Positions 4,163-61,955 of a DNA stretch of 64,000 bases are shown in pieces. The stretch comes from Opitutia bacterium (lineage in GTDB: Bacteria; Verrucomicrobiota; Verrucomicrobiia; Opitutales; T3Sed10-336): contig JBJHCF010000022.1 in assembly GCA_050506795.1 (NCBI GenBank), positions 20,045-84,044 on the forward strand, written 5' to 3'. How positions within the stretch are numbered: the stretch's first letter is position 1; each line of letters opens with the position of its first letter. The notes under the pieces are model-generated. The model worked only from the letters and a program-made list of their open reading frames with translations, was not told the DNA's origin and did not search any database. A program made the position numbers and the translations under genes.

Positions 4163-4909
4163 ATGACACAGAAGCAAAGAGCCTACGATTACCTTAGGGA
4201 AAAGCTGATCGCCGGTGAACTGTCTCCGGGAAGCCGGCTTTCCGATATCGCTTTGGCGAAGGAGATCGGAATCAGCCGAACTCCGATTCGTGAAGCGATC
4301 AATCAACTGGCGAATGAGGATCTGGTGCAGTTGGTGCCCCACAACGGAGCTTTCGTAAAAGTTCCCGACGAGGAGGAACTAATCGAGCTGTACGATCTTA
4401 GAAAACTTCTGGAGACCTATGCCGTAAAACAAGCGGCAGGTAATATGAGCGAGGGAAACCTGCGCCAGCTGATCGAGATGATCACACACATGGACATGAT
4501 TATCAAAGAATTAAAAAACTCTGGCCGAGAAGCGCCGACCGCTGCCATTCGTCGACGTTGGGTGATGACGGATTATGCTTTTCACCTGGTTCTATTCAAG
4601 TCGTGCGGAAATCGAAAAGTGATGCGGATTGCGAGTGATCTCCGGATGTTGACACAGGCTTTTATTTTCCGGAAGGAAGATCCAAAAATTTCGCCGATTG
4701 AAGTGATGCGGATCGCGAACAAGGAGCACCGGGAGGTGTTTCGCGCCCTCGAATCCGGGAAAGGCGACGAAGCCAGCGAAGTTATCGATCGGCATCTCGA
4801 TCGGGCGAAAAACGCCACCCTGGCGAATTACGCCACTGTATGTCAATCGACTCCAGAACAAGAACCGGAGTGGCTGACGTCGGTACGGGGTGTGATCAAT
4901 AATGCCTGA
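4163..4909 (+). CDS. GntR family transcriptional regulator (FCD domain)
   Basis: LSPGSRLSDIALAKEIGISRTPIREA winged HTH; ELYDLRKLLE, FH, EHREV motifs of the FCD domain. Confidence 0.92.
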   Translation: MTQKQRAYDYLREKLIAGELSPGSRLSDIALAKEIGISRTPIREAINQLANEDLVQLVPHNGAFVKVPDEEELIELYDLRKLLETYAVKQAAGNMSEGNLRQLIEMITHMDMIIKELKNSGREAPTAAIRRRWVMTDYAFHLVLFKSCGNRKVMRIASDLRMLTQAFIFRKEDPKISPIEVMRIANKEHREVFRALESGKGDEASEVIDRHLDRAKNATLANYATVCQSTPEQEPEWLTSVRGVINNA

Positions 4910-4925
4910 GGAATGGTCAAATCCC

Positions 4926-6014
4926 ATGAAAACTCGACTGCATCCCGAACCGAACAACCTGCCGGACCGGGTTGCTGAGTTCTTAAAACAAGGCATTCTG
5001 GAGGGAAAGTACCAGGGAGCTTTCCCCAGCGAGCGAAAACTTGCCGAGGAAGTTGATGTCAGTCGCATGACAATACGAGCGGCTTTGAGAAAGGTGCAGG
5101 AGGACGGTCTGATAGAGATTTCGGGCAAACGACGGATGATTCCACCTGAGTTTCGAAAGGACCCGGAAGCGGATGGAGCTTCTGCGGAACTCGTCATTCT
5201 AAGCGCGGAACCTTTGGAAGAAGTTTACCATTCGCACGTATTCATCTTCGAAATGTTACGTGAGAAACTGGCGCGCCATGGATTTGGGTTATCGATTCAA
5301 GTTTCATCCCGCTTTGGCATGACTGGAAAAGGAAAGGCTCTTGCAGAAACGGTCGATCAGCATCCGAACGCGTCTTGGTTGCTGATTCGAATTCCACCAG
5401 CCGGGCAGCGCTGGTTCATCGAGAACAACCTGCGAACCATTGTCATGGGGACGGCGGCGCTTGGACTGGACACGGTCTCCATGGACATCGATCATGAAGC
5501 CACTTGCTTCCACGCCACCTCGGTCCTGGCGGCCCGAGGCAAGAAGTCGATCGCCTTCGTGCGAAGGGCTGCCAACCTGATTGGGGATGAGCGGAGTGAG
5601 GCGGGGATGCGGAATGCCTGCAAGAGAGCGCAAGTCAAAGGCACCGCTCACCGGCTCGCCGGAGATTCGGCCTCCACAATCGACTTGCTCGAATCACTTC
5701 GGCGGGAAAACCGCCTTCCGGATGGAATCATTGCGGGAGATCCGGCGATCTTCCTGAGCGCTTACAGTTTCTGTTACAAGCATGGACTACGCATTCCCGA
5801 AGACATCGCGCTCATCTCCCGGAACGATGACATCCTGCTTGACGCGTTGAGGCCGACGGTTGCGCGTTATCGGGTAAATGATTCGGTGGTACTCAACCGG
5901 TTATGGCGTCTTACGCTGCCGGTTCTGAGGAACCAAGTGTATAAGAAAAGCCCGCATCTTCTCATGCCCGACTATGTTCCGGGTGATAGTGCGGGAGTGC
6001 CTGGTATTAGCTGA
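4926..6014 (+). CDS. Hybrid regulator: GntR-type wHTH plus LacI/periplasmic-binding-protein-like sensor domain
   Basis: FPSERKLAEEVDVSRMTIRAAL at the N-terminus; GLRIPEDIALIS LacI-type C-terminus; alternative start at 4902. Confidence 0.82.
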   Translation: MKTRLHPEPNNLPDRVAEFLKQGILEGKYQGAFPSERKLAEEVDVSRMTIRAALRKVQEDGLIEISGKRRMIPPEFRKDPEADGASAELVILSAEPLEEVYHSHVFIFEMLREKLARHGFGLSIQVSSRFGMTGKGKALAETVDQHPNASWLLIRIPPAGQRWFIENNLRTIVMGTAALGLDTVSMDIDHEATCFHATSVLAARGKKSIAFVRRAANLIGDERSEAGMRNACKRAQVKGTAHRLAGDSASTIDLLESLRRENRLPDGIIAGDPAIFLSAYSFCYKHGLRIPEDIALISRNDDILLDALRPTVARYRVNDSVVLNRLWRLTLPVLRNQVYKKSPHLLMPDYVPGDSAGVPGIS

Positions 6015-6051
6015 AACAACAAACACCATTTTGAACGGTAATCATGGTCTA

Positions 6052-6063
6052 TGGTTTATACCA
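6052..6063. promoter_or_regulatory. Candidate GntR-family operator TGGT-N4-ACCA upstream of nanA
   Basis: TGGTTTATACCA inverted repeat in the 6015-6139 intergenic region. Confidence 0.3.
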
Positions 6064-6139
6064 AGGTTCGTTACTTGTGATCTCTTGGAATCGGGTCGAA
6101 ACTTCTATTATCAATTGCCCGCAAGGGTAGGGAATTCAG

Positions 6140-7153
6140 ATGACAAAACTAAACGGATTAATCGCGGCAGCGTTCACCCCTTTTCGGGGCGGAGAGATAA
6201 ATGTTGAGGTCATTCCTCCATATGCTCGATATCTTGCGGCCAATGGGATTTCCGGTGTGTTTGTAAATGGCACGACCGGCGAAGGGCACTCCCTCACCGA
6301 CGATGAGCGGATGCTTCTGGCCGAGACCTGGGTAAAGGCTGCGCCGCCGAATCTTAAAGTACTTGTGCATGTCGGACACAATTCGCTTCCGGTGGCGCGT
6401 GAACTGGCACGTCATGCGATGGAAATCGGCGTAGGGGGCTTCGCTGCGATTGGCCCGAGTTTTTTCAAACCGTCGCTGGAAGAGTTGGTGAGTTTCATGG
6501 CTGAATTGGCGCAGGCCGCTCCGAATCTGCCATTTTATTACTACCACATTCCGGCAATGACAGGTATTACAATTAGGATGCTCGATTTTTTGCAAGTTGC
6601 GGAGCAAAGGATACCAAATCTGACGGGGATCAAGTTCACGCATGAGAATATGATGGATTACGGCCTCTGCCAGGACTATGAGGGAGGAAAATTCGACATG
6701 GTTTTCGGACGTGACGAGATGTTGGTCTGCGGGCTTTCACTTGGAGCCAAAGCAGCGATCGGCAGCACCTACAACTTCGCCGCCCCCCTCCATAACGCGA
6801 TTCTGAAAGCGGCGTCGGACCACGACCTTGATCGGGCGCGATCACTCCAGTGTCTGTCGATGAAGGTGGTCATGGCTTGCACAGATGAAACTCCCAACGG
6901 ATTGTCAGCCATTCGAGCTCTTACGGAATGGAGATCCGGTCTCGATTTTGGCCCGATGCGTGCCCCGAATACCGGCGTTGGCAAAGAAGGTATCAGGCGC
7001 CTAAAAGAAAATGCACAAGCTTGCGCAGGTGACCACCTGTCGGAAGCCGTTCACGATACACCGCAGCCAGAGCGGTATGTGAATGATGATGACGAAAAAG
7101 GGGTTTTTGTTTCACCCAGTCTGGAGCGAAACAGTCGGAACTCCGAAGAATAA
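6140..7153 (+). CDS. nanA: N-acetylneuraminate lyase (DHDPS family)
   Basis: NGTTGE, YYYHIP, GIKFT (Schiff-base Lys), FGRDE and AIGSTYN signature; flanked by a sialic acid transporter and sialidases. Confidence 0.88.
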   Translation: MTKLNGLIAAAFTPFRGGEINVEVIPPYARYLAANGISGVFVNGTTGEGHSLTDDERMLLAETWVKAAPPNLKVLVHVGHNSLPVARELARHAMEIGVGGFAAIGPSFFKPSLEELVSFMAELAQAAPNLPFYYYHIPAMTGITIRMLDFLQVAEQRIPNLTGIKFTHENMMDYGLCQDYEGGKFDMVFGRDEMLVCGLSLGAKAAIGSTYNFAAPLHNAILKAASDHDLDRARSLQCLSMKVVMACTDETPNGLSAIRALTEWRSGLDFGPMRAPNTGVGKEGIRRLKENAQACAGDHLSEAVHDTPQPERYVNDDDEKGVFVSPSLERNSRNSEE

Positions 7154-7198
7154 TAAATACTAACCGGCCCACATTTTGGCCAAACTACTTGATATCGA

Positions 7199-7924
7199 AT
7201 GAAAGAGAAAAAAAGTCATGACCCGGTCGGTGCTTATGGGTTTACTCTAATTGAATTGTTGACGGTGATTGCTATTATCGGAATCCTGGCTGCAATCCTA
7301 ATTCCGGTAGTGGCGAACGTAAGGACCAGTGCCAGGGCGGCCCAGTGTACGTCAAATCTGCGCCAGATCGGAATGGCTACCTTTCTGTATCTTGGAGATA
7401 ATAACGATCGATTCTTCCCGCGGCAAGGCAGTCGGCACAATCTCCTGGGTAAGCCGGCGGAACGGCGCGAGCTTGAGTCGGATCAGCGGATTCTAAACCC
7501 GTACCTTTCTTCTACGGGACGCCGCGATCCTGTCGAGGTTGCGCGTTGCCCTGATGATAAAGGCAGCGTTGATTTGTCAGGCGGTCGAACGGAGATCGAG
7601 AGCGCTTATGAGGCGTTTGGCAGTTCGTACGGTGCGAATATTTGGCCGGGGGCGCTTCATGACAGCAATCTCCAGCCTATCTCGTTGTATGCGATTCCCG
7701 ATCCTAGCCGATTCGTTATTTTCGCGGAAGATATGGCGCTGACCAATGCGCATGGCGAGACGAATAGTTCGTCTGGTTGGCATTGGGACAATGAGCCGAG
7801 CTTTATTCTTTTGTTTGGAGACGGCCATGTGGGAAGGCATCTGGTGCCCCAGGCTTCCGTCAACACCGAGGAATACACCTTTCTTTTGAATCCGCCCAGG
7901 GCGCCGACCAGGCCGACGAGGTAG
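7199..7924 (+). CDS. Prepilin-type N-terminal cleavage/methylation domain protein (pseudopilin-like, C-terminal H...DGHV motif)
   Basis: [44 protein letters not shown]...LFGDGHV. Confidence 0.92.
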
Positions 7925-8021
7925 AATAGTCCACGTAAGGAATCCTGAAACATCACGCTAACCGTGGATACATGGTTTAATCTGTAAAGTTGTTGGTGAA
8001 ACCCAAAGGAGAAATAGCAAT

Positions 8022-11000
8022 ATGTTTAAAAATACGAAAGGTAGCTCAATACGGGTGACGAGGCCGGGAAAATTTCCGGCCGTGATTGCCCTTTCCCTGG
8101 TTTTCTCCGGGGTACTGTTTGCTGAGGATGCTGAAACCATCGCTTTTGTTGAAGATGGGGTCCTGCAGAATGCCACCGTGGTCGGTCCGGGAGTGGAACA
8201 GCATGGGGATCACATACTCATTCAAGGCACCGGGACCGGGCTCGCTTCCAACCTCGCTTTGATGGAGGGCGATTTCCACATTAAAGCGACCCTGGCATTT
8301 GAAGTGGACGGCACGGCAGCCGGATTTGTTTTTGGGTTTCATGGAAATACGGGGAGTTTCCTGGGGAACCCAACCGGCTATTTTGGTTTCGATAGTGGAT
8401 CGCAGAATCTCTTTGTGGAGGGCGGATTCATGAACGCCGCCCAGGGCACGGGTCCCGCATCCGAGGGAGCGCCGGCTTCGGATTTTATTGAGGACGGGGT
8501 TCCGTTCCTGTTCGAGGCCATACGCGAGGATGGGATTTTGACAGTCTTGATCGACGAAGTCGAAGTCTACAGCCAGGAAATAGGCAATCAGGCGATTGGG
8601 CATCTGGGAATCCGGCCATGGCGCGCGAATATGCAGGTCTTTGGTTTTAGCGCATCAGGAAACCTGATTGGTGTTACCCTACCGGCAAAAGAGAATTTTG
8701 GCGAATACTCGATCTTCGTAGAGAATGGAACCGTATCTGACGTTAACCTGATCGGTGACGGCTGGGAACATATTGACAATTATATCGTTGCTCAGGGAAC
8801 GGGGAAGTTTCTTCAAACTACGATTCGCTTGCTGGAGGGAGATTTTCATATTGAAGCTGAGGTGGCAATGGATGCCCTGAATGGAACCGCGGCTTCGTTC
8901 CGATTTGGGAACGATGACTTTGGTTTTGATGGAGGTCGTCAGGTTTTCTTTCAAAGTGGACCTTTGTATGGGCCGGGAGTAGGTGTTGGTCCGGCAGCGG
9001 CCGGTTTTCCGGCGGGTGCCTACATACAGGGGGGACAACCTTTCCTTCTCGAAGCAAAACGTGTGGGGAATACCCTTACCGTTATGATTGACGGGGTGGG
9101 TATATACCAAAAGGAGTTCGGCAGCGATGGTATCGGCACGCTGGCCTTCCGTCCCTGGAGATCTGAGATGCGGATTTATAATTTCCGCGTCGCCGGAAAC
9201 CTGGAGGAGCCAGCGTCCTTGCCAATCGATGACCACTTCGGGCAGGTTCGCTATATAAGTTTATTGGGTGGCTTGACAGAGGGAGTGGGCTACCAGTTGG
9301 GACCGGTTGGAACAGGGACTGAACCGTTTCTGGATGATGATATTTCCATCGTCTCGATGCCGTCCAACCTTGATGGGAACCTCGGCTTCCGCACCTCCAA
9401 TGCACAGTTTTACTGGGGGATGGAGATGCCCGACAATGAGCCGATTGTATTCGTGGAAGACGGCGAGGCGATGTTTATGAGGGAAGTCGGTCCCGCGTGG
9501 TCCCAAGGCGACGGCTTTGTTTTTAATCAAGGCACGCAACGATGGCTTAGGACCAACGCTCTGCTTCGGGAAGGGGATTTTCATATCAAAGCCACGATGG
9601 CAATCAATGCTATCAATGGAACCGCCGCGACTTTTCAGATGGGCAACGCTCACTTCGGCTTTGATTCAGGGGGCCAAAACCTATTCGTGGAAGGCGGCTT
9701 TTTCGGCGGGGTTGTGCAACTGGATCCGGCCGCGGACTACATCGAAGGCGGGGTTCCATTTTTGTTTGAGGCGATCCGGGAGGGTAATATTATCCGATTC
9801 CTGATCGATGAGGTTCAGGTCTATCAGAGGGACATAGGCGCGAACCAGGTGATCGGTTCGGTAGGTTTCCGTCCATGGCGTTCTGAAATGCGGGTATATG
9901 ACTTCGAAGTGACCGGTAATTTCGGATGGACGAACCACCTGGCCTTTGAAATCGATCGTGAGACGAGCGTCTACATCGCGAACGATCCTGAATATGAAGC
10001 CGATTGGTTGACGGATCGATTTACAAAGACAGAAATGACCATCGAAACGACCGGAGGTGATTTCGATGTTTGGGAACGGGTTTTCGACGCCCGGGACTTC
10101 GTAATGTTGCCGGGCAATGGAGGAGACGGTCATAATTACTGGGTTTTGTTAAGTAAGAAACCCTCGGCGATCACGGAATCGCCGATCAACTATGTTCGCA
10201 CGCCCGGAGGCGACGATTGGAGTTTGGTCCGTAATGGGTGGCGTCTAACGACCGACCCGGAATCATTGCTTCACTCGGGACGGTTGCTGACAGGAATCTC
10301 GAACTTCGTGCCGGAACAGGGGGTTCGGATTCGAGCTGAGTTCCGGGTCCCGCAACTGCAGCACGGCGGAGACAATTCTTACGGGCTCCTCGTTATGGGT
10401 GACTCGACTTTGACTCCGAACCAGGGGATCCGGGCGGAATGGTTGCCGCGTCAAGCCGATGGAAGCTCGACTTTTCGCTTGGTGAACAATGCGAATCGGA
10501 CCGTTCTCGAGGGTGAGAATTCTTCTGTTTCCTGGGGTGGGTTGGCGCCGACGCGAACCAATGATTGGGTGACGGGGGATGATCAGATCGACCTGGTTTG
10601 GGATTCAAGGGCGTCGGAACTTGCCAGCCCGTATTTTCTGGATGACGACTCCAAGGTCATTGTAAGACTTCCTGACGGGCTTGATCCGGGATTCCTTCTC
10701 GACGCAATCAAGACGGAAAATGATTTGTCCAACTCCAGCGAAAACTTCGTTCAGTTTACGGTGGAATCCGGTGAACCGGGGGACGGTAACGAAGGGGTCA
10801 CGGTGTTTGTGGCCTGGGATATCAGAAACTCGGGATTCGAGCCGGATTGGTTGACCGAAGGATTTTCCAAAACGGATCACCTCGTGCAGGTCACCGGCGG
10901 GGCCCAGTTTCATCGCCTTTGGGCGGCGGAATATCCCGAGGGTGCCGTTGTTACGCTTCCGGGGGCCTCCTATGGTGAAGGCGGTCCTTTCCTTGATGGA

Positions 11001-11702
11001 ACGGATAATTACTTCGTCCTGCTTGGCGATACCCGTTCCGGGCTCGATTCAATTTACACCATGGAGGTGGAAGCCATACGGGAAGGCGAGGAGTGGATTC
11101 TGAGCGCGACGCTGACAGACGCCGACGGTTTTTCCGAAACGGTCACTGCCTCCCACGGTCCGGCGTTGAGTGGGGGAGATGTTTTTGGGGTTATCGTTCA
11201 GCATCTGGATCGAGCCGATACTTCAGAGACTCCTGTGACGCCGATCTGGGACACCTTTTCTCTAACGATGGACTTTGTCGTCCCTCCGGTACTGAGTGGC
11301 TTCGATGCCTGGGCGGCGGAGTATTTCCCGAACAACGTCAACGATCCCCAGGTTAGCGGTCCGGCGGCGATGCCGTCTGGAGACGGGGTCATGAACCTGA
11401 TCAAGTACGCTTTGGGTCTGCCCCCATTGGAACCGGTTTCGTCAGCAGACTTGCCCGGGGCCGGTCTGAACGAAGAGGGACAACTGGTATTCGTTTATTG
11501 GGAACGGACCGATATCAACGATGTGGTCTACATTCCGGAAGTATCTGAAGATCTGATGGAGTGGGATACCGGACCCGATCATTTGGTGGAGATTTTTAGG
11601 AATCCAGCCGGCGGGAACGTTGAGGAGGTCGGTGTGAGGCCGAATAACCTGGAAGGCGCGAACCGTGTATTTCTTCGGTTGCGCCTGGAGCAAAGTGATT
11701 AA
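8022..11702 (+). CDS. Large secreted multidomain protein: three 'RPWR' beta-sandwich-like repeats, two copies of a second domain, and the shared C-terminal domain; no catalytic domain recognised
   Basis: 1226-aa ORF with signal peptide; repeated GDFHI-GTAA-FGFD-PFLxEA-RPWR blocks; ends GDGVMNLIKYALG...RVFLRLRLEQSD. Confidence 0.85.
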   Translation: MFKNTKGSSIRVTRPGKFPAVIALSLVFSGVLFAEDAETIAFVEDGVLQNATVVGPGVEQHGDHILIQGTGTGLASNLALMEGDFHIKATLAFEVDGTAAGFVFGFHGNTGSFLGNPTGYFGFDSGSQNLFVEGGFMNAAQGTGPASEGAPASDFIEDGVPFLFEAIREDGILTVLIDEVEVYSQEIGNQAIGHLGIRPWRANMQVFGFSASGNLIGVTLPAKENFGEYSIFVENGTVSDVNLIGDGWEHIDNYIVAQGTGKFLQTTIRLLEGDFHIEAEVAMDALNGTAASFRFGNDDFGFDGGRQVFFQSGPLYGPGVGVGPAAAGFPAGAYIQGGQPFLLEAKRVGNTLTVMIDGVGIYQKEFGSDGIGTLAFRPWRSEMRIYNFRVAGNLEEPASLPIDDHFGQVRYISLLGGLTEGVGYQLGPVGTGTEPFLDDDISIVSMPSNLDGNLGFRTSNAQFYWGMEMPDNEPIVFVEDGEAMFMREVGPAWSQGDGFVFNQGTQRWLRTNALLREGDFHIKATMAINAINGTAATFQMGNAHFGFDSGGQNLFVEGGFFGGVVQLDPAADYIEGGVPFLFEAIREGNIIRFLIDEVQVYQRDIGANQVIGSVGFRPWRSEMRVYDFEVTGNFGWTNHLAFEIDRETSVYIANDPEYEADWLTDRFTKTEMTIETTGGDFDVWERVFDARDFVMLPGNGGDGHNYWVLLSKKPSAITESPINYVRTPGGDDWSLVRNGWRLTTDPESLLHSGRLLTGISNFVPEQGVRIRAEFRVPQLQHGGDNSYGLLVMGDSTLTPNQGIRAEWLPRQADGSSTFRLVNNANRTVLEGENSSVSWGGLAPTRTNDWVTGDDQIDLVWDSRASELASPYFLDDDSKVIVRLPDGLDPGFLLDAIKTENDLSNSSENFVQFTVESGEPGDGNEGVTVFVAWDIRNSGFEPDWLTEGFSKTDHLVQVTGGAQFHRLWAAEYPEGAVVTLPGASYGEGGPFLDGTDNYFVLLGDTRSGLDSIYTMEVEAIREGEEWILSATLTDADGFSETVTASHGPALSGGDVFGVIVQHLDRADTSETPVTPIWDTFSLTMDFVVPPVLSGFDAWAAEYFPNNVNDPQVSGPAAMPSGDGVMNLIKYALGLPPLEPVSSADLPGAGLNEEGQLVFVYWERTDINDVVYIPEVSEDLMEWDTGPDHLVEIFRNPAGGNVEEVGVRPNNLEGANRVFLRLRLEQSD

Positions 11703-11723
11703 GGTTTGAAAGTTAGGTGGATT

Positions 11724-11757
11724 GGAGTCCGCCCGGATTGAAAAACGGGCGGACTCC
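11724..11757. terminator. Perfect 12-bp stem-loop; attenuator or mRNA-stabilising hairpin (no U-tract)
   Basis: GGAGTCCGCCCG (11724-11735) pairs with CGGGCGGACTCC (11746-11757), just after the large gene. Confidence 0.55.
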
Positions 11758-11855
11758 GGCTTGCTGAAGGAGTGGATGTAAAAGTGCGGCGTTTTCCGTT
11801 GGCGGTTTGATGGGATTTCTTCCGCGATTTTAAGAGAACAACTGATTAACACAAC

Positions 11856-14219: not shown

Positions 14220-14254
14220 TCCGGGCTACGGATCTAAAAAAATCACCCACAATT

Positions 14255-15484: not shown

Positions 15485-15508
15485 GAGAGCCGAAGAAGGA
15501 GGGGCATA

Positions 15509-15649
15509 GAATTTGGAATTTGGATTTGCGACTTTGGATTTTCCATTGGCTCGCTCCGCGGGCACCAGTCTCGCCTTCCTTCGGGAAGAGGGGCCACTTA
15601 TTTTGCGCGAAGCGCAGAACTTAAATCTAAAATCCAAAATCTAAAATTC
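15509..15649. repeat. Intergenic structured element: inverted heptamer arrays (ATTTTGG-like / CCAAAAT-like) enclosing internal hairpins
   Basis: gaatttggaatttggatttgcgactttggatttt (15509-15542) vs aaatctaaaatccaaaatctaaaattc (15623-15649); CTTCC-TTCG-GGAAG and TGCGC-GAA-GCGCA hairpins inside. Confidence 0.7.
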
Positions 15650-15672
15650 CGACTGTCGGTATTAGGGGAAAT

Positions 15673-34405: not shown

Positions 34406-34479
34406 CGTTCCCGACCGGGACGAGGGTGGGGGAAACAGTGCTTGATTCGGGACGGGGCGCTCGCCAGATTCGACCTTTT

Positions 34480-36027: not shown

Positions 36028-36040
36028 TGCGATCGGAACC

Positions 36041-38046: not shown

Positions 38047-38098
38047 CTTGTTTTACTTCGTGACAATACCCGCGGAAAAACGGTATTAGGTTATTTCC

Positions 38099-38497: not shown

Positions 38498-38501
38498 GTC
38501 C

Positions 38502-40249: not shown

Positions 40250-40273
40250 GTTTACCGACAAGGAGATGAATCA

Positions 40274-41302: not shown

Positions 41303-41308
41303 AGTTAA

Positions 41309-42187: not shown

Positions 42188-42457
42188 CATCGGTACGGAT
42201 ATTGGCTTTTAAAGCCGATATCCACCCGCGCTTCGGATGGAGGCGAGAAATTGGCGTCATTTGCCGTCCAGGGTGGGAATTGCTCGGAATTGATCGTTCT
42301 CGAATCGGGAGGACGACGAAATGGATAAACTTGACCGCTTGATGGACATTTTCGACGATTTGCCGGAATTTTACTTGTTTCCAGTAGACGATCAAAAATA
42401 AACTTCGATCAACCCGTTTGGTTAACCTCCGCTAAATTCTATCGATCCGTATTGCTT

Positions 42458-52549: not shown

Positions 52550-53338
52550 ATGAAAGTATCACAATCTCCACGACGTTTGTTATCCCGTCGCGCATTTACG
52601 TTGATTGAATTGTTGACCGTAATTGCCATTATCGGAATCCTTGCCGCGATTCTGATCCCCGTCGTCGCCAAAGTTCGTCAATCCGCGTCCCAGGCGGTTT
52701 CAATTTCCAACATGCGTCAGGTCGGTATTGGAATCCAGGCGTTTGCCGCCGATCATAACGATCGTTTGCCCGGAGTGTACCGGACCTTGAACGGGCAGCC
52801 CCATCCCGGATACAGCCTGGGTGGGGGGCAGTCGCCCTATGCGACGCCGACGCTTCGGACGTCCCTGGGGCATCCCGATCAACTGGGCCCTTACATCGAA
52901 TCCAGCGTAAGAATCGTGGATGGCACGGAGCGGCGCTACGTGCCCTTGCTGGAAAGTCCGGCCTATGCCCGGAGTCGTCCCCCGAACGAGTTTCCCACCA
53001 GTCACCTTCGGGCGGAATCGGTTCGCCATGGCAATGGACGCCAATTGCTGCCGTCGCCCTTCGGTGTCGGCACCGGAGATGAGGGACGGCATACCATGAG
53101 CATGACGCTGGTACACATGGAGCGGCAGTTCACGCCTTCCCGTCGTTGGGCCATGATCGAGATCGACGAAAGCGCGCCGATTAACGTGATACGCGAGGCC
53201 GGTGGAAGCTGGCCGTGGCCGGTCATTAACGGGTCGATGCACGGCAACGCCTGGACGGCCCTGATGTTTGACGGCAGCGTAAAAGTGCTTCGCGAGGGGG
53301 ATCCTCTGCTCGATAACCAGCGGACCCAGGACCTTTGA
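52550..53338 (+). CDS. Prepilin-type N-terminal cleavage/methylation domain protein (pseudopilin-like)
   Basis: [47 protein letters not shown] (H-X9-DG). Confidence 0.92.
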   Translation: MKVSQSPRRLLSRRAFTLIELLTVIAIIGILAAILIPVVAKVRQSASQAVSISNMRQVGIGIQAFAADHNDRLPGVYRTLNGQPHPGYSLGGGQSPYATPTLRTSLGHPDQLGPYIESSVRIVDGTERRYVPLLESPAYARSRPPNEFPTSHLRAESVRHGNGRQLLPSPFGVGTGDEGRHTMSMTLVHMERQFTPSRRWAMIEIDESAPINVIREAGGSWPWPVINGSMHGNAWTALMFDGSVKVLREGDPLLDNQRTQDL

Positions 53339-53393: not shown

Positions 53394-54410
53394 ATGAACT
53401 CTGGACTCATTGGAAAACGTATCATCGCTCTCGTGACGGGAGCGGTTTTTGCGGTCGTGATTGCTCACGGCCAGGTTATTTGGAACAATCAAGGTGAGGA
53501 CAATCTGTGGACCAATCCCGCGAACTGGGACGGTGCCGCCGTGCCGGGCTCCGGCCAGGAGGCGCGGGTGAACCTGTCCGGGGTCGACCGGGCGGTTGTG
53601 GACGCCGCGGCCCCGGTTTTCGGACACTTCCGTGTCGGCGTGGGCGGCGGTTCGATCGGGGAGGTGGAAGTGCTCGCCGATGGATTTCTCAACGCCGACA
53701 ACACCTCGCAGGATCGAGTCGGTGTCGGCGGCGGCACCGGAATCGTAAATCAGAGCGGGGGTACGGTTCGTCTCGGTGGCGCCCAGGTGCAGGTCGGTCT
53801 GGATAACGGGTCGATCGGCACTTACAACCTCAGCGGCGGAACCTTTATCGGCGCCCGCGAGCAGGGGGGGACAACGCTCTTCATTGGACAAAGTGGGGGA
53901 ACAGGATCGTTCAACGTTTCCGGCGGCGAACTCCGGACCCGCGCCGGGGTTGCGCTGGGAATCAACGGAGGAACCGGATTGTTTAATGTTCAGGGCTCCG
54001 GCGCGGACCAGATCGCCATTGGTGGCGAGGGTAATCTGGCCGGCCGCTGGATACAGAACGCCGGAAGCACGCTCCAGTTCGGCATCGATGCCGGCGGGGT
54101 CAGCGTCATCGATATTCTCGATGACAATGGCGCCGGCGGGGACGTTACTTTCGAGGAGGGCGCCCTGTTAAATGTCGGATTTGTCGATCAGCCGGTTTTC
54201 GGCACCTGGACCGTCATGCAATGGGCCGGGACACTCACTGATAACGGATTGGCGTTTGCCCCCGGGGTCGACGAAAATGTATGGAGCTTCGATTTTTCCG
54301 GGAACGAATTGCAGCTCACCGCGGTTCCGGAGCCGGCGACGTACGCGCTGATCTTCGGTATCGCCGGCGCCGTTCTGCTTTTCCTGCGTAGACGTCGAAC
54401 TGGACGCTGA
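53394..54410 (+). CDS. PEP-CTERM sorting domain protein with a Gly-rich beta-helix-like passenger
   Basis: Signal peptide; ends VPEPATYALIFGIAGAVLLFLRRRR. Confidence 0.95.
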   Translation: MNSGLIGKRIIALVTGAVFAVVIAHGQVIWNNQGEDNLWTNPANWDGAAVPGSGQEARVNLSGVDRAVVDAAAPVFGHFRVGVGGGSIGEVEVLADGFLNADNTSQDRVGVGGGTGIVNQSGGTVRLGGAQVQVGLDNGSIGTYNLSGGTFIGAREQGGTTLFIGQSGGTGSFNVSGGELRTRAGVALGINGGTGLFNVQGSGADQIAIGGEGNLAGRWIQNAGSTLQFGIDAGGVSVIDILDDNGAGGDVTFEEGALLNVGFVDQPVFGTWTVMQWAGTLTDNGLAFAPGVDENVWSFDFSGNELQLTAVPEPATYALIFGIAGAVLLFLRRRRTGR

Positions 54411-54469: not shown

Positions 54470-54507
54470 CGTCCCATCCGCCACACAGGCGGGTGGGACG
54501 TTTCTTT
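54470..54507 (+). terminator. Intrinsic terminator after the PEP-CTERM gene
   Basis: CGTCCCATCCGCC-acaca-GGCGGGTGGGACG followed by TTTCTTT. Confidence 0.75.
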
Positions 54508-54666: not shown

Positions 54667-57600
54667 ATGAAAAAGCGTTTTTCTCGGAAACTGTTGGTTG
54701 CCCTGTTGTCTGCCTCGCTCGCCGTCCCGTTGGGTCTTCTTTACGCGCAAACGACCTCCGAAATCGTCTGGACCAACGGTTCCGGCAACAATGACTGGGG
54801 GAACAGTGGAAACTGGGATATCGGCTTTTTCCCGGCCGATTTCGAATGGGTCGTCATCAACCTGGCCGGCGGGGATCGAGCCGTTTTTGATTCCAGCGAA
54901 GGGAACGACATTCTTTACCTGCGGGTGGGAGAGGGTGAGGGAGTCAGCGGCGAACTGGATATTCTGAGTGGAACCCTCAATGCCGCCCAAGTCGGTTCGC
55001 AGTCTCGATTCGGATCTGAAGGCGGCGCCGGTACGCTCAACATCATGGGAGGCACTCTCAGCATCGGAGGCGCTCAGACCCATATCGGGTACGGAGAAGG
55101 TTCGACGGGAATGGTCAATGTGAGCGGCGGGCTGTTAAACGTTTTTCGGGAATTCCAGGGAACCTCCGTGTTTATTGGAGCCCAGGGCGGCGAGGGAACC
55201 TTCCACATTACCGGGGGTTCGCTTCGCACGCGGGCCGGTGTGCAATTGGGCAGCGTTGCAAATCCCGGCGACCCGGAGAACGAGGAAGATGATGGCTGGC
55301 CGGCGGGAGTGGGCGTTTTCAGTGTGGAAGGATCCGAGCCGAACGAGATTGGAATTGGCGTCGAACAATCCGTTCCCGGACGTTGGATACAGAATGCCGG
55401 TAGTGTGCTGCGTGTCCGATTCGACGATATTCCCCCCGATTTCGGCGGCGGAGCCCGCCCGATTGATGTGGTGCAGTTCAACGGTCAGGGTGGTCACGTG
55501 ATATTCGAAGAGGGCGCTCTTCTCGATGTGGACTTCATGGGTGCGGAAGTCGGCGGCACCTTTGTTGTCATGCGCTGGCAGGGAGATTTGACCGACAACG
55601 GTCTGCAGTTTGCGGATACGGTAGACACCGAGATCTGGAGCTTCGAGTTGGACCTCGATAACAAACGGTTGCTGGTGACCTCGACCGCCGAAGGTGATAA
55701 CGGCGGTGTGCCGTTGGGCGATGACGGAACCTGGATCGCTGATGCCGATGGCAATTGGAGCGATGCCGGCAACTGGGAGGACGGTGTTGTGGCGGACGGA
55801 ACCAGCGCCACGGCCGATTTCGCTACTTTGAATATCTCCGCGCCGCGAACGGTCACCCTGGACGCCAGCCGTACTATCGGAAATCTCGAATTCGCTGATA
55901 TTTCCGGCGAAAACGGGTGGATACTGGGGCCGGAGGCGCTTGATGCCGCCAGTGAAACCGAGTCCGGAAACCTGCTGACCCTGGCGCGAATCGGCGGTCG
56001 CCCCACGATCGATGTGGAGAATGGAACGGTCGCCATTCAACGCCGATTAGGGGGAGTCCAGGGTTTTATTAAGGAGGGATCCGGTGTATTGGAGTTGAAC
56101 AATCCGTCGCATCCGCTTACCGGCGACCTTACCGTGCGCGAAGGTATTCTACGCGCCTTGGCCGGTGGAAATGGCGGTATGGGAATCGGCACCGTAGGGG
56201 GCGCCGAAAATCGAATTGTCGTTGAAGACGGTGGCACTTTCCAGTTGGGAGGCAACGTTCAGATCGCCAATAAGCAGGCCCGAATCGCCGGCGCAGGCGT
56301 CGATGACGGCGAAGGCGGCAACCTGGGGGCGTTCTACGTTGATGCGACCGGTTTGGGCAACGGGACCCGTTGGTCTCACAATGGAGCAACCAATCCCGCG
56401 TTGTCACTGGCGGCTGATGCGACGATTCGGGTCGATGGCAACGGCTTCGGTCAGAATACCTCCAATGTCCTCATGGCTCACCTGGATCTGGGGGGCCATA
56501 CGCTTACCAAAGCCGGAATGGGAAGAATCACGCTTGACCTGAACGGCGCGGCGACCGGAGTCGGAACCTTGAATATTGCCGAAGGCGTGCTGGGGTTAAC
56601 CCACAACAGCATTCGAAACGGAGTCGATCTGGTTATCGGTCAGGCAGGGGAAGTGCGTGGCGGCCGGGCGCCGGCGCCGCTCAACTCAACCACCAATACG
56701 GTGACTGTCAACGGGCGTCTGGTCATGAGTGAACGTACCGACGCGTTGGCCACCACTCAACACATTGGAGTTCTGCAGGGCAGCGGCGTCATTACAACCG
56801 GTATTTGGGGCAACACCGGGACCCACACCCTGAACATTCATCACCCCACGGTGGACAGTTACTTCAGCGGGGTGATCGAAGAGGAGTCGGGCCGGATCAA
56901 CATTGTGAAAGGCGTGGTTCCGGATCCGAATGAGGAGAATGGTGAAGCCGAGGAACCCTCGACGCTTACTCTGGACGGTATGAATTCCTACTCCGGAAAT
57001 ACCACCATCAACCACGGTTCCCTCGTAGTGGGAGAAAGCGGCGGGCTGACCTTCTATATTACTTCGCCTTCGGCGAACAACCAGGTGGCCGCCGGGAGCA
57101 ACGCGGTCGGCGTGAGCCTCCATTTGAACGGAAGCTTCAGTTTCAACCTGACCGAGGCGAGCACTTCGATGGGAAGTTCCTGGTCGCCGGTCAACACCAC
57201 GAATCTGGACGTTACCGTCGGGGAGACCTTCCGGGTCGCCGGATTCTCCCAGGTTGAGCCGGGGGTTTGGGGAACCAACGCCAACGGCGTAGGGTACCGT
57301 TTCACCGAGGCGACCCTGCTTCTCGAAGTGGTTGACGAGTTCGAAGATCTCGAGACCGGGTTCCAACAGTGGCAGAGCGAATTCCTGTCCGGTGTGCCGG
57401 AAGCGATGCGAGCCCCGGATGCCGATCCGGATGGCGATGGTCTGAAGAATCTTGCGGAGTACGCCTTCGGCGGGGATCCCCTGCGGCCGTACAGCGCGAT
57501 GCCGCCCTCCCTGGCGGCGGTGATGGAAGGCGAGGAAATGTTCCTGGAAATCACCTTTTCCCGTATTGATGCTTCCGATATCGTGTATCGTGTCGAAGCC

Positions 57601-57750
57601 GTCGACAGTCTCGATGCCGAATGGGGTGAAAATGTCATTTGGGATAGTTCAGATCATGCCTATTCAGGTCCGGAAGAAACCGTACGCGATTCCCAGGCGA
57701 TCGGTAACTCGGGATCCCGCTTCCTTCGTGTTTCCGTTTCGCAGCAGTAA
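54667..57750 (+). CDS. Large secreted protein: copy of the PEP-CTERM passenger + autotransporter-associated beta-strand repeats + shared C-terminal domain
   Basis: Signal peptide; KEGSGVLEL, TKAGMGRITL, NSYSGNTTINHG repeats; ADPDGDGLKNLAEYAFGGDP...RFLRVSVSQQ. Confidence 0.88.
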   Translation: MKKRFSRKLLVALLSASLAVPLGLLYAQTTSEIVWTNGSGNNDWGNSGNWDIGFFPADFEWVVINLAGGDRAVFDSSEGNDILYLRVGEGEGVSGELDILSGTLNAAQVGSQSRFGSEGGAGTLNIMGGTLSIGGAQTHIGYGEGSTGMVNVSGGLLNVFREFQGTSVFIGAQGGEGTFHITGGSLRTRAGVQLGSVANPGDPENEEDDGWPAGVGVFSVEGSEPNEIGIGVEQSVPGRWIQNAGSVLRVRFDDIPPDFGGGARPIDVVQFNGQGGHVIFEEGALLDVDFMGAEVGGTFVVMRWQGDLTDNGLQFADTVDTEIWSFELDLDNKRLLVTSTAEGDNGGVPLGDDGTWIADADGNWSDAGNWEDGVVADGTSATADFATLNISAPRTVTLDASRTIGNLEFADISGENGWILGPEALDAASETESGNLLTLARIGGRPTIDVENGTVAIQRRLGGVQGFIKEGSGVLELNNPSHPLTGDLTVREGILRALAGGNGGMGIGTVGGAENRIVVEDGGTFQLGGNVQIANKQARIAGAGVDDGEGGNLGAFYVDATGLGNGTRWSHNGATNPALSLAADATIRVDGNGFGQNTSNVLMAHLDLGGHTLTKAGMGRITLDLNGAATGVGTLNIAEGVLGLTHNSIRNGVDLVIGQAGEVRGGRAPAPLNSTTNTVTVNGRLVMSERTDALATTQHIGVLQGSGVITTGIWGNTGTHTLNIHHPTVDSYFSGVIEEESGRINIVKGVVPDPNEENGEAEEPSTLTLDGMNSYSGNTTINHGSLVVGESGGLTFYITSPSANNQVAAGSNAVGVSLHLNGSFSFNLTEASTSMGSSWSPVNTTNLDVTVGETFRVAGFSQVEPGVWGTNANGVGYRFTEATLLLEVVDEFEDLETGFQQWQSEFLSGVPEAMRAPDADPDGDGLKNLAEYAFGGDPLRPYSAMPPSLAAVMEGEEMFLEITFSRIDASDIVYRVEAVDSLDAEWGENVIWDSSDHAYSGPEETVRDSQAIGNSGSRFLRVSVSQQ

Positions 57751-57778
57751 TTCGCGCAACCGAATCGTTCCGATACAG

Positions 57779-57818
57779 GGTCCCGGTGAGCCGTTTGACG
57801 CTGGCCGGGGCCTTTTTT
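57779..57818 (+). terminator. Terminator-like hairpin with T6 tract ending 3 nt before the next ATG
   Basis: GGTCCCGGT...GCCGGGGCC then TTTTTT. Confidence 0.55.
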
Positions 57819-57821
57819 GAC

Positions 57822-60800
57822 ATGAATTGGTTTACAAAAATCAGGTGCACCACAGCCGTGGCGGCCTTTTGTGCGTTAAACTTGAACGCAGCCGAATTTG
57901 TTCATCCGGGTGGCATGTTCAATCGGGCCGATATGGACCGGATGCGTTACCAGGTCGAGGCTCGGATCGATCCCTGGCACGCTTCGTTTCTTGAACTCCA
58001 GGCCGAACCGCTGGCCAGCCACAGCTACACCGTGCGGGGCGACCCGGGTTGGACAACGGTAGGCCGAGACCCTGCGATCCGCAGGAATGAATTCGAGTCT
58101 GATGTAACCGCAGCCTACTTGAACTCGCTCATGTGGATCGTGACCGGGGACGAGCGTCATGCCGCGAAGTGTGTTGAGATTTTCAATACCTGGCAAAACC
58201 TCACCGAGGTGCGGGGCGGCGGTACCGAGTCGCTGAACGCGGGGCTTTACGCGTGGAAGCTCGTGGAAGCGGCGGAGATTATTCGTAGTACCTACGACGG
58301 CTGGGATCCACAGGATCTGAAGGCTTTTCAGGACATGCTCGTGTACCCGGGGTATTCCAACACGGAAGTGCCCCCGTCTTTGAGCAACACGAACGGAACC
58401 TTCTACTGGAGAGTCTACCGGGGGGATCCCGGGCGTCACGGTAACCAGGACATGATCGCCTGGCGGGCGATGATCACCATGGGGGTATTTCTTGACAACC
58501 GCATCATGTACGACCGCGCTCTGCGCTACTTTACGGGACAACCGAGTCGCGAGGACGATCTTCCATATCCGTCGGGACCGTCGCCCTCAGGCCCGGTTGT
58601 GACCGATAACGAATTCTTCACGGCTTTCCAGTACCGGGGGTCGGCGAACCGAATCCCGGATTATGGTTACAACGGCGTCCTGGAGCATTTTATCTGGGAG
58701 ACCGGCCAGACCCAGGAAAGCTCGCGCGATCAGGCGCACGCGATGTTCGGTTTGGGAACCGCCGCCGGGATCGCGGAAGTGGCCTGGACGCAGGGAGACG
58801 ATGTCTGGAACTCGCTTGAAAACCGCCTGCTGAAGGGATTCGAATTCAATGCCAGGTACAACGCCAGCTACATCGCGGCGTTCCCCGATCAGCCCGACCC
58901 CTGGGAGCCGGATGATTTCATCCAACGCACCGATCGAACCGGACGATGGTTCTCCAAAAAAATCAATCCGCATTTCGAGAGCAACTTCGTGTCCATCAGC
59001 CGCGGTAACTTTCCCGGTGTACGTCCGATTTTCGAACAGGCGCTCGCTCACTTCGATGTGCGAATGGGGCAGGGCGGAGAGGCGGTCTGGACGCGTCGCG
59101 CCCGGGATGTGGCCATCGCCCAGTCCGGATACGAGCGCACCGGATGGAGTCTCGATCATCCCGGTTGGGGGGCGCTGACGTTTCGTCGTCCTCCGTTGAC
59201 CGCTGGCGATCCGATCCAGGGGTTTACCGACGGCGTGCCGGAGTTCGGCGTTCACCGTTTTCCGACCACAATCGCCGCGGTGAACTACGACTATTTTCCG
59301 GGGTCGGGGCTGGGTCGGACTTATCTGGACCATACGCCTGAGAACAGGGGCGGCCACTATCGCCCCAACGATGCTGTGGATATCGAATACGACCCGGTGG
59401 AAGGGGACTATCTCACGGACATGGAGGCGGGAGAATGGCTGACTTATACCGTGAGCGTTCCCGCGGACGGATGGTATCGATTCGGCGTTCGTTACTCGAC
59501 TGCAAACGACCAGGGCGCCATCCGTTTTTCATTCGGCGGCGCCGACGTCACCGGCGCGGTGGCCCTGCCCGATACGGGAGGTCCGACCGAGTGGGAGGAT
59601 TTGATCGTTGCCGACAGTGTATTTCTCGGCGCGGGTGTACAGGCGATGAGGGTGCATGTTGCGGGAGAATCCCATTCTTTTCGCCTTGCGAGTCTCACCG
59701 TCCAGGAGGGCGAGCTCCCCGTCGATCCGCCTCCCGCGCCCGCTGAGCTGTCGGCGACGGCGGTTTCTTCCGGGGAAATCAGACTGGAATGGTCCGCAAC
59801 CCCGGCGACCGCCACCTACAACGTGAAACGGGCAACGGTGAGCGGCGGTCCCTACGCCACGGTGGCTTCGGGCGTATCCGGTTTGAAATACAGCGATAGC
59901 GGTCTCACCGCCAACACGACTTATTTTTACGTCGTCAGCGCAGAGAACAACGTCGGAGAAAGCGATCCGTCGGCGGAAGTGTCGGCGACCACACCCGACA
60001 TCTTCGAAGGAGCATGGAGCGTCGACGCCGATGGAAACTGGAGTGATTCCGGAAACTGGTTGGATGGGATCGTCGCCGATGGCGCCGGGGTCACTGCGGA
60101 TTTCAGCCGGACTGCGATTTCGGATAACCGGATCGTCGTCCTGGATACCAGCCGTACCATCGGGCACCTGGTATTCGGAGCCGGAGGTTCGGGGAACTCA
60201 TGGGCGATCGCATCGGCGCCCGAAGCAAGCCTGAGGTTGGAGGCACCTGAAGAAATACCTTCCATTCAAGTGAATGAGTCGATGCTTTTGATCGAACCCG
60301 TGATTTCGGGAAGCCAGGGCCTCCGCAAAACCGGCGAAGGAGTCCTGGTTCTCAGTAACAAGAACCACGAGTTTGATGGAGGCTTGACGGTGGACGAGGG
60401 GTACTTCCGCGTCGGCGGAAGCGGAACGCTTGGTGGTGGGGAGATCCGGGTGAACGCGGGAGGCACCTTGGATCTTGCTCCGAGTCTGCAGATTTCGGAC
60501 CGGAGTTTATCCATTGCCGGCAGCGGGGCCGGGGGCGAGGCCGGGGCTTTCTATCTGGACGCGACCGGGCTGGGCAATCAGACCCGATGGGGGCTCTCCG
60601 GGATAAACCCGGCCATCCGCCTGCTCGCTGACGCCACGATACGAGTGGACGGCGATGGATTCGGACCCAATACGGCGAATTTTCTCGTTGGTCGAACGGA
60701 TCTCGGCGGTAACACGCTCACCAAGACCGGCTCCGGACGTCTGTCATTCGACACCGGCGGGAACGGTTTACAGGGTGCCGGAACCGTGCATGTCGCCGAA

Positions 60801-61955
60801 GGGGTCCTGGGATTTCGGGGAGGGGCTTTCGCGGGAAATCGGAATCTTGTAATTGATTCCGGCGCCGAGGCTCGTGTCGGTGGCGACAACAACGCCCTGA
60901 ACTCCACCGCGAATCTGGTGACCGTGGACGGAACCCTGAACCTGAACGCGCGAGGCAACGGAAATGCGGGTAGTGACAATTTGAGTTTTTCGCAGACCAT
61001 CGGTCGTTTGGCCGGCAGCGGTACCATTACGACCGGCGTTCAGGGAAGCACAGGTACCCAGACACTCACGGTAAGTCACAGCGGGCCGAACGACAGTGTT
61101 TTCGAAGGCACGATTACCCAGGCCAACGGCGCAGTTTCGTTGGTCAAGTCCGGCTCCAACACACTTGTGCTCAACGGAACAACGGCCCACCGCGGAAACA
61201 CCACGGTGAATGCGGGCAGGCTGGTGATCGGCGAAACGGGTCAATTCACCTTCCACATCGGCTCCTCCGGACAAAGCAACCGGGTGCTGGGAAACGCCGA
61301 GGTCGAATTTAACGGCGCTTTTTATTTCAACCTTGATGATGCTGGATCCTCGGAAGGCGATAGTTGGGCGGTGGTCGACGTCGCCAATCTTTCGGTTGCT
61401 TTCGGACCGGCGTTCCAGGTCGGGGCGTTCGTCGAAACCGATGCCGGTCTCTGGCGGCGTAATGCCAAAGGCGTCGGTTATGAATTCGACCAGTCGACCG
61501 GAAGGCTGCAGGTGTTTGAATTGTTTGAGGAGGACGAGCTTCAACCGAAACGGAACCCTTTCGAGAAGTGGCAATTTTCCCACTTCGGGGATGGGTCGGA
61601 GGACCCTGCGCTTGCCGGGCCGTATGCCGACCCTGATGGTGACGGTATCCTCAATCTGCTGGAGTTTGCCTTGGGAGGCAACCCGCTCGTCAATTCGCGT
61701 CAACGGGTGCCAAGGGTGGGTCAGGTTGACGGTTATCTGGTCATGACCTTTTGGCGTGTGCGTGCGGCCGAAACCTTCCTGCAATACCGGGTTGAAGCGG
61801 CCAACGACAAGTCGGGACCCTGGACCGAAATATGGAGCAGCATCGACCATCCGTACTCTACGAATGATGACATGATCGAAGAATCCGTCACCGATTTCCA
61901 GCCGATCGCCGAATCCCCCACACGTTTCCTGCGACTTGTGGTGTTCGGCGAGTAA
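57822..61955 (+). CDS. Secreted alginate-lyase-like (alpha/alpha) domain + CBM6-like + FN3 + autotransporter-associated beta repeats + shared C-terminal domain
   Basis: FVHPG...DRMR, HGNQD, QESSRDQAH; GEWLTYTV (CBM6-like); YNVKRATVSGGPY...YFYVVSA (FN3); ADPDGDGILNLLEFALGGNP...RFLRLVV; substrate unknown. Confidence 0.82.
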   Translation: MNWFTKIRCTTAVAAFCALNLNAAEFVHPGGMFNRADMDRMRYQVEARIDPWHASFLELQAEPLASHSYTVRGDPGWTTVGRDPAIRRNEFESDVTAAYLNSLMWIVTGDERHAAKCVEIFNTWQNLTEVRGGGTESLNAGLYAWKLVEAAEIIRSTYDGWDPQDLKAFQDMLVYPGYSNTEVPPSLSNTNGTFYWRVYRGDPGRHGNQDMIAWRAMITMGVFLDNRIMYDRALRYFTGQPSREDDLPYPSGPSPSGPVVTDNEFFTAFQYRGSANRIPDYGYNGVLEHFIWETGQTQESSRDQAHAMFGLGTAAGIAEVAWTQGDDVWNSLENRLLKGFEFNARYNASYIAAFPDQPDPWEPDDFIQRTDRTGRWFSKKINPHFESNFVSISRGNFPGVRPIFEQALAHFDVRMGQGGEAVWTRRARDVAIAQSGYERTGWSLDHPGWGALTFRRPPLTAGDPIQGFTDGVPEFGVHRFPTTIAAVNYDYFPGSGLGRTYLDHTPENRGGHYRPNDAVDIEYDPVEGDYLTDMEAGEWLTYTVSVPADGWYRFGVRYSTANDQGAIRFSFGGADVTGAVALPDTGGPTEWEDLIVADSVFLGAGVQAMRVHVAGESHSFRLASLTVQEGELPVDPPPAPAELSATAVSSGEIRLEWSATPATATYNVKRATVSGGPYATVASGVSGLKYSDSGLTANTTYFYVVSAENNVGESDPSAEVSATTPDIFEGAWSVDADGNWSDSGNWLDGIVADGAGVTADFSRTAISDNRIVVLDTSRTIGHLVFGAGGSGNSWAIASAPEASLRLEAPEEIPSIQVNESMLLIEPVISGSQGLRKTGEGVLVLSNKNHEFDGGLTVDEGYFRVGGSGTLGGGEIRVNAGGTLDLAPSLQISDRSLSIAGSGAGGEAGAFYLDATGLGNQTRWGLSGINPAIRLLADATIRVDGDGFGPNTANFLVGRTDLGGNTLTKTGSGRLSFDTGGNGLQGAGTVHVAEGVLGFRGGAFAGNRNLVIDSGAEARVGGDNNALNSTANLVTVDGTLNLNARGNGNAGSDNLSFSQTIGRLAGSGTITTGVQGSTGTQTLTVSHSGPNDSVFEGTITQANGAVSLVKSGSNTLVLNGTTAHRGNTTVNAGRLVIGETGQFTFHIGSSGQSNRVLGNAEVEFNGAFYFNLDDAGSSEGDSWAVVDVANLSVAFGPAFQVGAFVETDAGLWRRNAKGVGYEFDQSTGRLQVFELFEEDELQPKRNPFEKWQFSHFGDGSEDPALAGPYADPDGDGILNLLEFALGGNPLVNSRQRVPRVGQVDGYLVMTFWRVRAAETFLQYRVEAANDKSGPWTEIWSSIDHPYSTNDDMIEESVTDFQPIAESPTRFLRLVVFGE

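Follow-up and report, generated by a model that had tools for sequence, protein, structure and literature searches.

Proteins of the DUF1559 family (PF07596, SBP_bac_10; H-X9-DG, TIGR04294) are found in the Planctomycetota-Verrucomicrobiota-Chlamydiota (PVC) bacteria. They have an N-methyl motif, a conserved N-terminus, a C-terminal DG and many paralogues. The accessible text of PMC4807772 lists DUF1559 as expanded and PVC-specific. This text concerns two members that share these traits, pilin A and pilin B, on a stretch of 64,000 nucleotides of an Opitutia bacterium (Verrucomicrobiota; contig JBJHCF010000022.1, positions 20,045 to 84,044). The whole stretch is called the window below. In the papers found, the function of the family is unassigned; here its genes are tied to glycan loci and to exported lectin-like proteins.

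By analogy, the SusC/SusD polysaccharide utilization loci of Bacteroidota look much the same: regulator, carbohydrate-active enzymes (CAZymes), surface glycan-binding proteins and transporter are clustered likewise, with one variable specificity gene per locus. Unlike those loci, this genome has no SusD match and the contig no TonB receptor, and any channel or motor would be common to the loci and encoded elsewhere. The accessible text of PMC8857213 reports Verrucomicrobiota to be without SusCD, and calls their outer-membrane polysaccharide transport open; for Planctomycetota and Verrucomicrobiota together, that passage is stated to be open in the same text and in the accessible part of PMC5394234.

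Pili have been linked to glycans before. The type IV-like pilus of Akkermansia MUL2 (Amuc_1099-1102) is a Verrucomicrobiota pilus proposed to serve glycan attachment and uptake (PMC13174399). Compared by its description, MUL2 is a single conserved locus that includes PilM and a pilin of the archaeal-like kind, whereas here dozens of pilins are dispersed in glycan loci, and those in the window do not lie beside PilM or secretin genes.

Neisseria ComP, other non-core minor pilins of type IVa pili, and PilB/PilC of S. sanguinis have the class III signal, Glu5, dispersed genes and ligand specificity borne by the head; in the accessible portion of PMC10191384, ComP-type pilins catch DNA ahead of retraction. 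There are few such pilins per genome and their ligand binding is experimental, whereas here there are 39 paralogues and the ligand is presumed. Planctomycete crateriform structures combine energy-dependent periplasmic uptake of intact glycan with pili-like fibres, to which dextran binds (PMC5394234, as far as its accessible text goes). These fibres could be linked to DUF1559 pilins. The literature search, which left supplements and subscription journals aside, turned up no paper that places DUF1559 pilins within glycan loci.

Association of pilins with glycan loci

The association between these pilins and glycan loci is real and statistically supported. It was counted over the entire genome (4.94 Mb, 97.8% complete), in which the window sits on contig C22. 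Atlas neighbours come mostly from Verrucomicrobiota. Gene calls are the analysis' own predictions, and approximate. The pilin set consists of 38 matches to a local profile at 60 bits or more, less one GspG-like protein (C44:3), plus two divergent members, which makes 39. Pfam scans covered the two genes on either side of these 39 pilins and of 20 random anchors; genes under 100-120 aa were ignored.

The first-pass annotation of the window had named enrichment of prepilin genes in glycan loci above background as a check on its idea, and enrichment is what the counts show. A glycan enzyme or binding-module gene accompanies 25 of the 39 pilins and 2 of the 20 anchors (p 8e-5). Per neighbour gene this is 36/132 versus 2/72, or 24/132 versus 1/72 for catalytic glycan genes. 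If tandem pilins are collapsed, 21 of 33 loci are glycan-linked. Pilins with a variable head are glycan- or surface-linked in 18 of 19 cases (p 0.003).

There is also a link to a C-terminal domain of about 125 residues that ends several exported neighbours. Twelve of the 39 pilins have a gene with this domain no more than 500 bp away, against 3.8% of 1444 size-matched genes, and this adjacency exceeds that of other CAZyme genes (7/58, p 0.036). Within 5 kb of a gene for this domain or for a PEP-CTERM protein are 18 of the 39, against a background of 18.7%.

Two related genomes, G016 and G075, replicate the association: 43 of 112 pilins, and 0 of 93 ABC-ATPase anchors, are within 1 kb of a C-terminal-domain gene, and 44 of 49 pilin-domain pairs are on the same strand. 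The 112 are what is left of 121 pilin profile matches with the 9 weakest dropped, and the 27 weakest domain matches were left off as well. In G011, a complete genome from another family, 7 of 10 pilins have a lyase, PEP-CTERM, C-terminal-domain or LacI/AraC neighbour, compared with 2 of 10 controls (p 0.07). One locus there unites LacI, an alginate lyase, a pilin and, following the pilin, a 46% homologue of the locus-B dehydrogenase.

Regulators in general are not enriched among the two neighbours on either side (11/39 versus 3/20, p 0.34). The 12 LacI-like genes alone show a link: 4 of the 39 pilins are within 2 kb of one, versus 1.1%.

The two loci and their pilins

Pilin A is part of locus A, which holds genes for sialic acid:

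1522 to 4125, + strand: fusion of a NanM-like epimerase (Kelch) and a sodium:solute symporter (Pfam NANM and SSF), upstream of where the first-pass annotation began the locus
4163 to 4909, + strand: GntR/FCD regulator; a 63% homologue adjoins a pilin-A orthologue
4902 to 6014, + strand: regulator with a GntR helix-turn-helix and a LacI-type sensor domain; three of the four loci with a pilin-A orthologue have a 60-67% homologue
6140 to 7153, + strand: NanA-like N-acetylneuraminate lyase of the DHDPS family, scoring under the NanA equivalog cut-off
7199 to 7924, + strand: pilin A, a prepilin of the DUF1559 type that has Glu5 and a class III cleavage site (Gly14/Phe15) (TIGR02532, PF07596)
8022 to 11702, + strand: 1226-aa protein with signal-peptide-like start and the C-terminal domain (11304-11699); no Pfam or NCBIfam match
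11856 to 14219, + strand: BNR sialidase with one copy of a ~175-aa repeat and the C-terminal domain (13821-14216)
14255 to 15484, + strand: GH33-like sialidase with lipobox-like signal, without the C-terminal domain; matches PDB 1eur
15673 to 16938, + strand: DUF455 protein, with a 69% homologue in G016

Locus B, with pilin B, is preceded by a gene on the opposite strand:

47303 to 49672, - strand: enzyme of the GH95 fucosidase family, transcribed divergently from the LacI gene of locus B
49962 to 51071, + strand: LacI-type regulator
51410 to 52453, + strand: D-2-hydroxyacid dehydrogenase, start uncertain
52550 to 53338, + strand: pilin B, of the same family as pilin A with an unrelated head; His-X9-Asp-Gly spacing present
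53394 to 54410, + strand: PEP-CTERM protein; its passenger and the N-terminal third of the following protein are 44% identical
54667 to 57750, + strand: PATR beta-strand-repeat protein with the C-terminal domain (57361-57747)
57786 to 61955, + strand: putative lyase with alginate-lyase-like, CBM35-like, fn3 and PATR parts and the C-terminal domain (61563-61952)

Every gene the first-pass annotation listed for these loci is present, in the order it described. A single gene order common to both is indeed seen in A and B; as a conserved four-gene cassette it is rejected, as the orthologues of locus A are rearranged and kin of the locus-B dehydrogenase come without a pilin (0 of 5 close relatives, in the ~4 kb flanks examined).

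Both proteins belong to the pilin family. Against TIGR02532 (N-methyl/class III signal) A and B score 29.2 and 29.7 bits, with a cut-off of 16.3, and Glu5 is invariant across 117 homologues. Pilin A reaches 24.2 bits on PF07596 (cut-off 23.3) and 0.96 to DUF1559 clusters of the Atlas. Pilin B has no PF07596 match and scores 104.7 bits on the local family profile. TIGR04294 is weakly matched by 21 of the 39 paralogues at E 0.01 or better, and at that level by neither A nor B; in the aligned motif, B has the exact H-X9-DG spacing and A has H-X12-DG. The 39 copies have about 217-255 mature residues. With pilin A as query, the family extends, at E 1e-10 or better, to 10,435 representatives of clusters, many of them by way of the common N-terminus. 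Two other identities were rejected: the type II secretion system (T2SS) core pseudopilin GspG (36 and 28 bits for A and B, cut-off 88.85), and Verru_Chthon cassette D (TIGR02596; 24 and 21 bits, cut-off 70).

Within the family, median identity is 60% in the N-terminal segment and 20% in the head. The values for A versus B, 67% and 15%, are ordinary. The first-pass annotation had noticed that the two pilins share an identical run of 25 residues and diverge afterwards. This N-terminal run is a family stereotype, which rules it out as a special bond between A and B: the shared 24-mer is exact in 11 of the 39 paralogues, and the 25-mer in 6.

A FastTree tree separates an 18-member conserved subclade from 19 variable heads, with 2 others. 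Members of the subclade (e.g. L005:3031-3774, L010:3038-3811 and the L022 triple) have a Trp-Trp motif at the end and expanded recently. One family member is kept between serine hydroxymethyltransferase (SHMT) and a DHH pyrophosphatase in two families (L025:1925-2743, on genome contig C36, and L076:5792-6541, in G011). This pair is 37% identical over 208 aa, and is a candidate constitutive or core subunit. At C14:83773-85782, a pilin N-terminus is fused to a body of ~600 aa, adjoining two family pilins.

The AlphaFold model of mature pilin A, built with 117 sequences, is confident (pLDDT 94, pTM 0.89). Its helix spans 52 residues (2-53), and the head is rich in loops and contains a small sheet. 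A Foldseek search had no hit reaching E 0.001; when its 193 rows were realigned structurally, type IV pilins ranked first, led by Thermus PilA4 with a modest Z of 5.5 (rmsd 3.5, 123 aligned). Two Cys, two His and one Asp are at least 90% conserved in the homologues of pilin A.

The heads were searched for in 300 other genomes of the same order. Head B has no orthologue among them. For head A, four matches have close to 50% identity, and three others are weak. All four close orthologues have nanA, nan regulators, NanM-symporter, sialidase or 8022-like genes around them, in differing orders, and the three weak matches lie in other glycan-type loci. G016 holds three copies of head A in differing gene orders. 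In two of these, pilin A is co-duplicated with a protein of the 8022 type, and the third also precedes a C-terminal-domain protein. The DUF455 homologue in G016 is placed between a pilin-A orthologue and a lectin-like gene, and travels with that pilin.

The NanM-symporter fusion is likely the inner-membrane sialic acid uptake of locus A. Two orthologous G016 loci have homologues of it (67% and 40%), and its own genome has a paralogue. The two sialidases have five or four Asp-boxes each, and the second matches the solved bacterial GH33 sialidase PDB 1eur at E 5e-19. Upstream of nanA, at 6052-6063, there is a near-palindrome, one of just two such sites genome-wide, which we take to resemble a GntR/FadR operator. 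GC content over locus A (window 4001-16000) is 0.52-0.56, versus 0.59 for the genome, which suggests acquisition or differing codon use.

The large protein at 8022-11702 has three ~175-aa repeats, of the kind found once in the first sialidase. It is predicted to contain a legume-lectin-fold domain with an insertion (peanut lectin at Z 14.6, rmsd 3.2, 176 aligned; model pLDDT 66). No catalytic family was detected for it in Pfam or NCBIfam, and on its model it is likely non-catalytic; this is not proven, because PL7 lyases share the fold at Z about 11.

In locus B, the three exported genes are assembled from common modules. The C-terminal two thirds of the PATR protein at 54667-57750 are 42% identical to the putative lyase, and family scans detected no catalytic family in the PATR protein. 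A PDB sequence search with the N-terminal 493 aa of the lyase gave no match.

The C-terminal domain ends the first sialidase and all three large pilin-flanking proteins, and by strict criteria 90 proteins of the genome. It occurs in 35 of 71 genomes of the order. It has no sequence match in Pfam, NCBIfam or PDB, and does match nameless Verrucomicrobiota clusters in the Atlas. Folded inside a 591-aa model, it was covered by no structural match row. Proteins with the domain are likely exported, because 80 of the 90 have an N-terminal hydrophobic, signal-peptide-like stretch, versus 528 of 1519 in the background. Judged by its sequence context the domain is likely linked to export or surface anchoring, as a candidate Verrucomicrobiota signal. 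In a comparison with type IX secretion cargo, a search for SprA in the genome came up blank, as did its control. In two proteins encoded directly 3' of pilins (L015:4595-6670 and L026:4298-7345) the domain is internal and followed by 240 more residues. For PEP-CTERM proteins, a genome-wide search for the partner enzymes found 2 exosortases.

Elsewhere in the window, 32616-43813 holds a cluster of sugar ABC transporter, RbsD/FucU mutarotase, aldo-keto reductase, dehydrogenase and amidohydrolase, which may process the products of the GH95 enzyme. At 21121-23001 a xylose-isomerase-like TIM barrel is fused to a Gfo/Idh/MocA oxidoreductase.

Assembly machinery and possible roles of the pilins

No secretin, T2SSE-family ATPase or TonB receptor matched on the window's contig, in agreement with the first-pass annotation, which had recognised no TonB receptor, secretin or pilus ATPase in the window and had placed a T2SS or type IV pilus core with prepilin peptidase elsewhere in the genome. 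That core is there: 5 secretins, 13 T2SSE-family ATPases and 1 prepilin peptidase. All four short ATPases tested score above the PilT/PilU cut-off. The five secretin clusters are on contigs C72, C7, C21, C2 and C3; the first of these is a complete pilB-pilC-pilT-pilin cluster, and a true GspG is in the T2SS cluster on C7. SusD has no match in the genome, in a search that detected the positive control B. thetaiotaomicron.

TonB receptors number six in this genome, with frames of 641-791 aa, and 12 genomes of the same family have 9-62 pilin matches and 0-6 TonB receptors. The order-wide survey covered 71 genomes at least 90% complete, with counts limited to the best 41, 60 and 20 scored candidates. 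For TonB receptors, the 36 genomes of at least 3 Mb were used and the 35 under 3 Mb left out. At least 10 TonB receptors are found in 0 of 8 pilin-expanded genomes versus 15 of 28 others (p 0.011); kin genomes are not independent, so p-values of such order-wide comparisons overstate the case. In 25 chosen genomes, prepilins counted with a curated model number 23-55 for 5 expanded genomes and 7-22 for 14 TonB-rich ones, which confirms that TonB-rich genomes are not hiding large pilin sets.

Our tentative preference is that pilins A and B are locus-specific, non-core minor pilins, with variable heads that capture the glycan of their locus on a common retractable type IV filament encoded elsewhere. 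This reading fits best because the assembly end is conserved, the variable head follows the locus, retraction motors are present and TonB receptors are scarce.

Beyond the gene association, we infer all the steps. The regulator of a locus would induce the pilin along with the enzymes, and the single prepilin peptidase would process it. The conserved N-terminal ~60 residues would admit any paralogue to the same filament, and the head would bind glycan or its fragments. Neighbouring lectin-fold and PEP-CTERM surface proteins may concentrate the glycan, while the exported sialidase or lyase trims it. PilT retraction would then draw bound glycan to or through the secretin, and lipoprotein or periplasmic enzymes and the symporter would complete uptake. 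In Sus terms, the pilin might play SusD's part and the secretin SusC's, with the lectin-like proteins as surface glycan-binding proteins.

A number of observations weigh against this reading. Among 36 CAZyme/sulfatase loci, a sample skewed towards pilin loci, 14 have a pilin within 5 kb, as do 6 of 37 non-seed CAZyme genes; the first-pass idea that each glycan locus has its own dedicated pseudopilin is therefore too strong, even as the enrichment stands. For eleven of the 39 pilins, the two genes on either side include neither a glycan gene nor one for the C-terminal domain or a PEP-CTERM protein, and the 18-member conserved subclade is linked in just 9 of 18. Strict CAZyme adjacency in G011 is 3/10 versus 1/10 (p 0.58). 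The head of pilin A has no lectin or binding-protein fold match (Foldseek, E 0.001). Its four close orthologues all come from one family, so inheritance alone could contribute. The palindrome at 6052-6063 is absent from the four orthologous loci, and no operator common to them was found. Counted by family, the TonB pattern is 0/3 versus 8/15 (p 0.22). Nine of the order's large genomes have few pilins and few TonB receptors. The C-terminal domain also expands without these pilins. Lastly, free sialic acid is small enough for porins, and locus A may not require an import machine.

It is less likely that the pilins serve adhesion or display, where the pilin docks its large lectin-fold neighbour on a pilus, or itself binds a particle, so that the cell is kept on an insoluble glycan, and products enter by porins and symporters. 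The tightest link of the pilins, after all, is with C-terminal-domain proteins, many of which have LamG or lectin folds, and the co-duplication of pilin A with the 8022-type protein in two of three G016 copies fits as well. Precedents are the modular pilins of S. sanguinis and PilY1 tips (PMC10191384, accessible portion), and the MUL2 attachment pilus (PMC13174399). Yet four close paralogues of the 8022 protein (two on C17, one each on C20 and C34) have no pilin adjacent, as none of them turns up in the three closest genes to the left or right of any of the 39 pilins, and a pilin comes within 5 kb of only 18 of the 90 C-terminal-domain genes. By itself, adhesion would also leave the scarcity of TonB receptors unexplained.

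Improbable, too, is an export adaptor, in which each pilin becomes part of a T2SS pseudopilus and picks out, for secretion, the C-terminal-domain proteins encoded alongside it. In its favour, the genome has a T2SS cluster containing GspG, the adjacent genes are on the same strand, and the signal-like stretches on domain proteins noted above agree with it; between pilin and domain counts there is a weak correlation (rho 0.34, p 0.044, n 36). But 6 of 11 large genomes with at least 15 domains have 0-2 pilins (G049 has 58 domains and 1 pilin), and most domain-bearing genes have no pilin nearby. A conserved domain would presumably not call for hypervariable adaptors either. Of the two roles the first-pass annotation had offered for the pseudopilins, export is weakened by these counts, and capture fits the TonB-poor, SusD-less pattern; overall, its interpretation is partly supported.

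An equally low probability goes to pilins that never polymerise, and whose helix anchors them in the inner membrane as periplasmic binding or sensing subunits. The Pfam label SBP_bac_10 points that way, as does PMC4807772, which in its accessible text names members solute-binding proteins; the head is large and loop-rich, and many paralogues are unlinked to assembly genes. Nevertheless, the cleavage motif and Glu5 are strictly retained, the model shows a pilin core and not the fold of a periplasmic binding protein, and the neighbours include no consistent transporter or sensor partner.

The least probable explanation is that the pilins hitch-hike in fast-evolving, duplicated regions shared with glycan genes and serve surface variation (e.g. 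against phage) that has nothing to do with the glycan. In its favour are pilins that stand alone or in tandem, in some cases close to transposase or intron genes, the lower GC of locus A and the lack of orthologues for head B; against it are same-strand adjacency beyond that of other glycan genes, a head A that stays with nan genes through rearrangement and triplication, and a module of pilin, dehydrogenase, lyase and LacI that recurs in another family.

Meaning for the PVC bacteria

Capture by locus-specific minor pilins could be part of something larger, though this is more doubtful: a PVC counterpart of Sus based on a pilus. Dozens to hundreds of interchangeable, locus-induced DUF1559 pilins would retarget one retractable filament, and glycan would be pulled through a secretin into the periplasm, beside surface lectins exported with the C-terminal domain.

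The neighbours of the pilins define a nameless, export-associated C-terminal domain on about 90 proteins. Pilin A has a small, confidently modelled head with close orthologues in sialic-acid loci only, so that a candidate ligand is specified. If true, a pilus-based counterpart of Sus would explain selfish uptake without SusCD, and would give a role to a protein family that ranks among the largest still uncharacterised.

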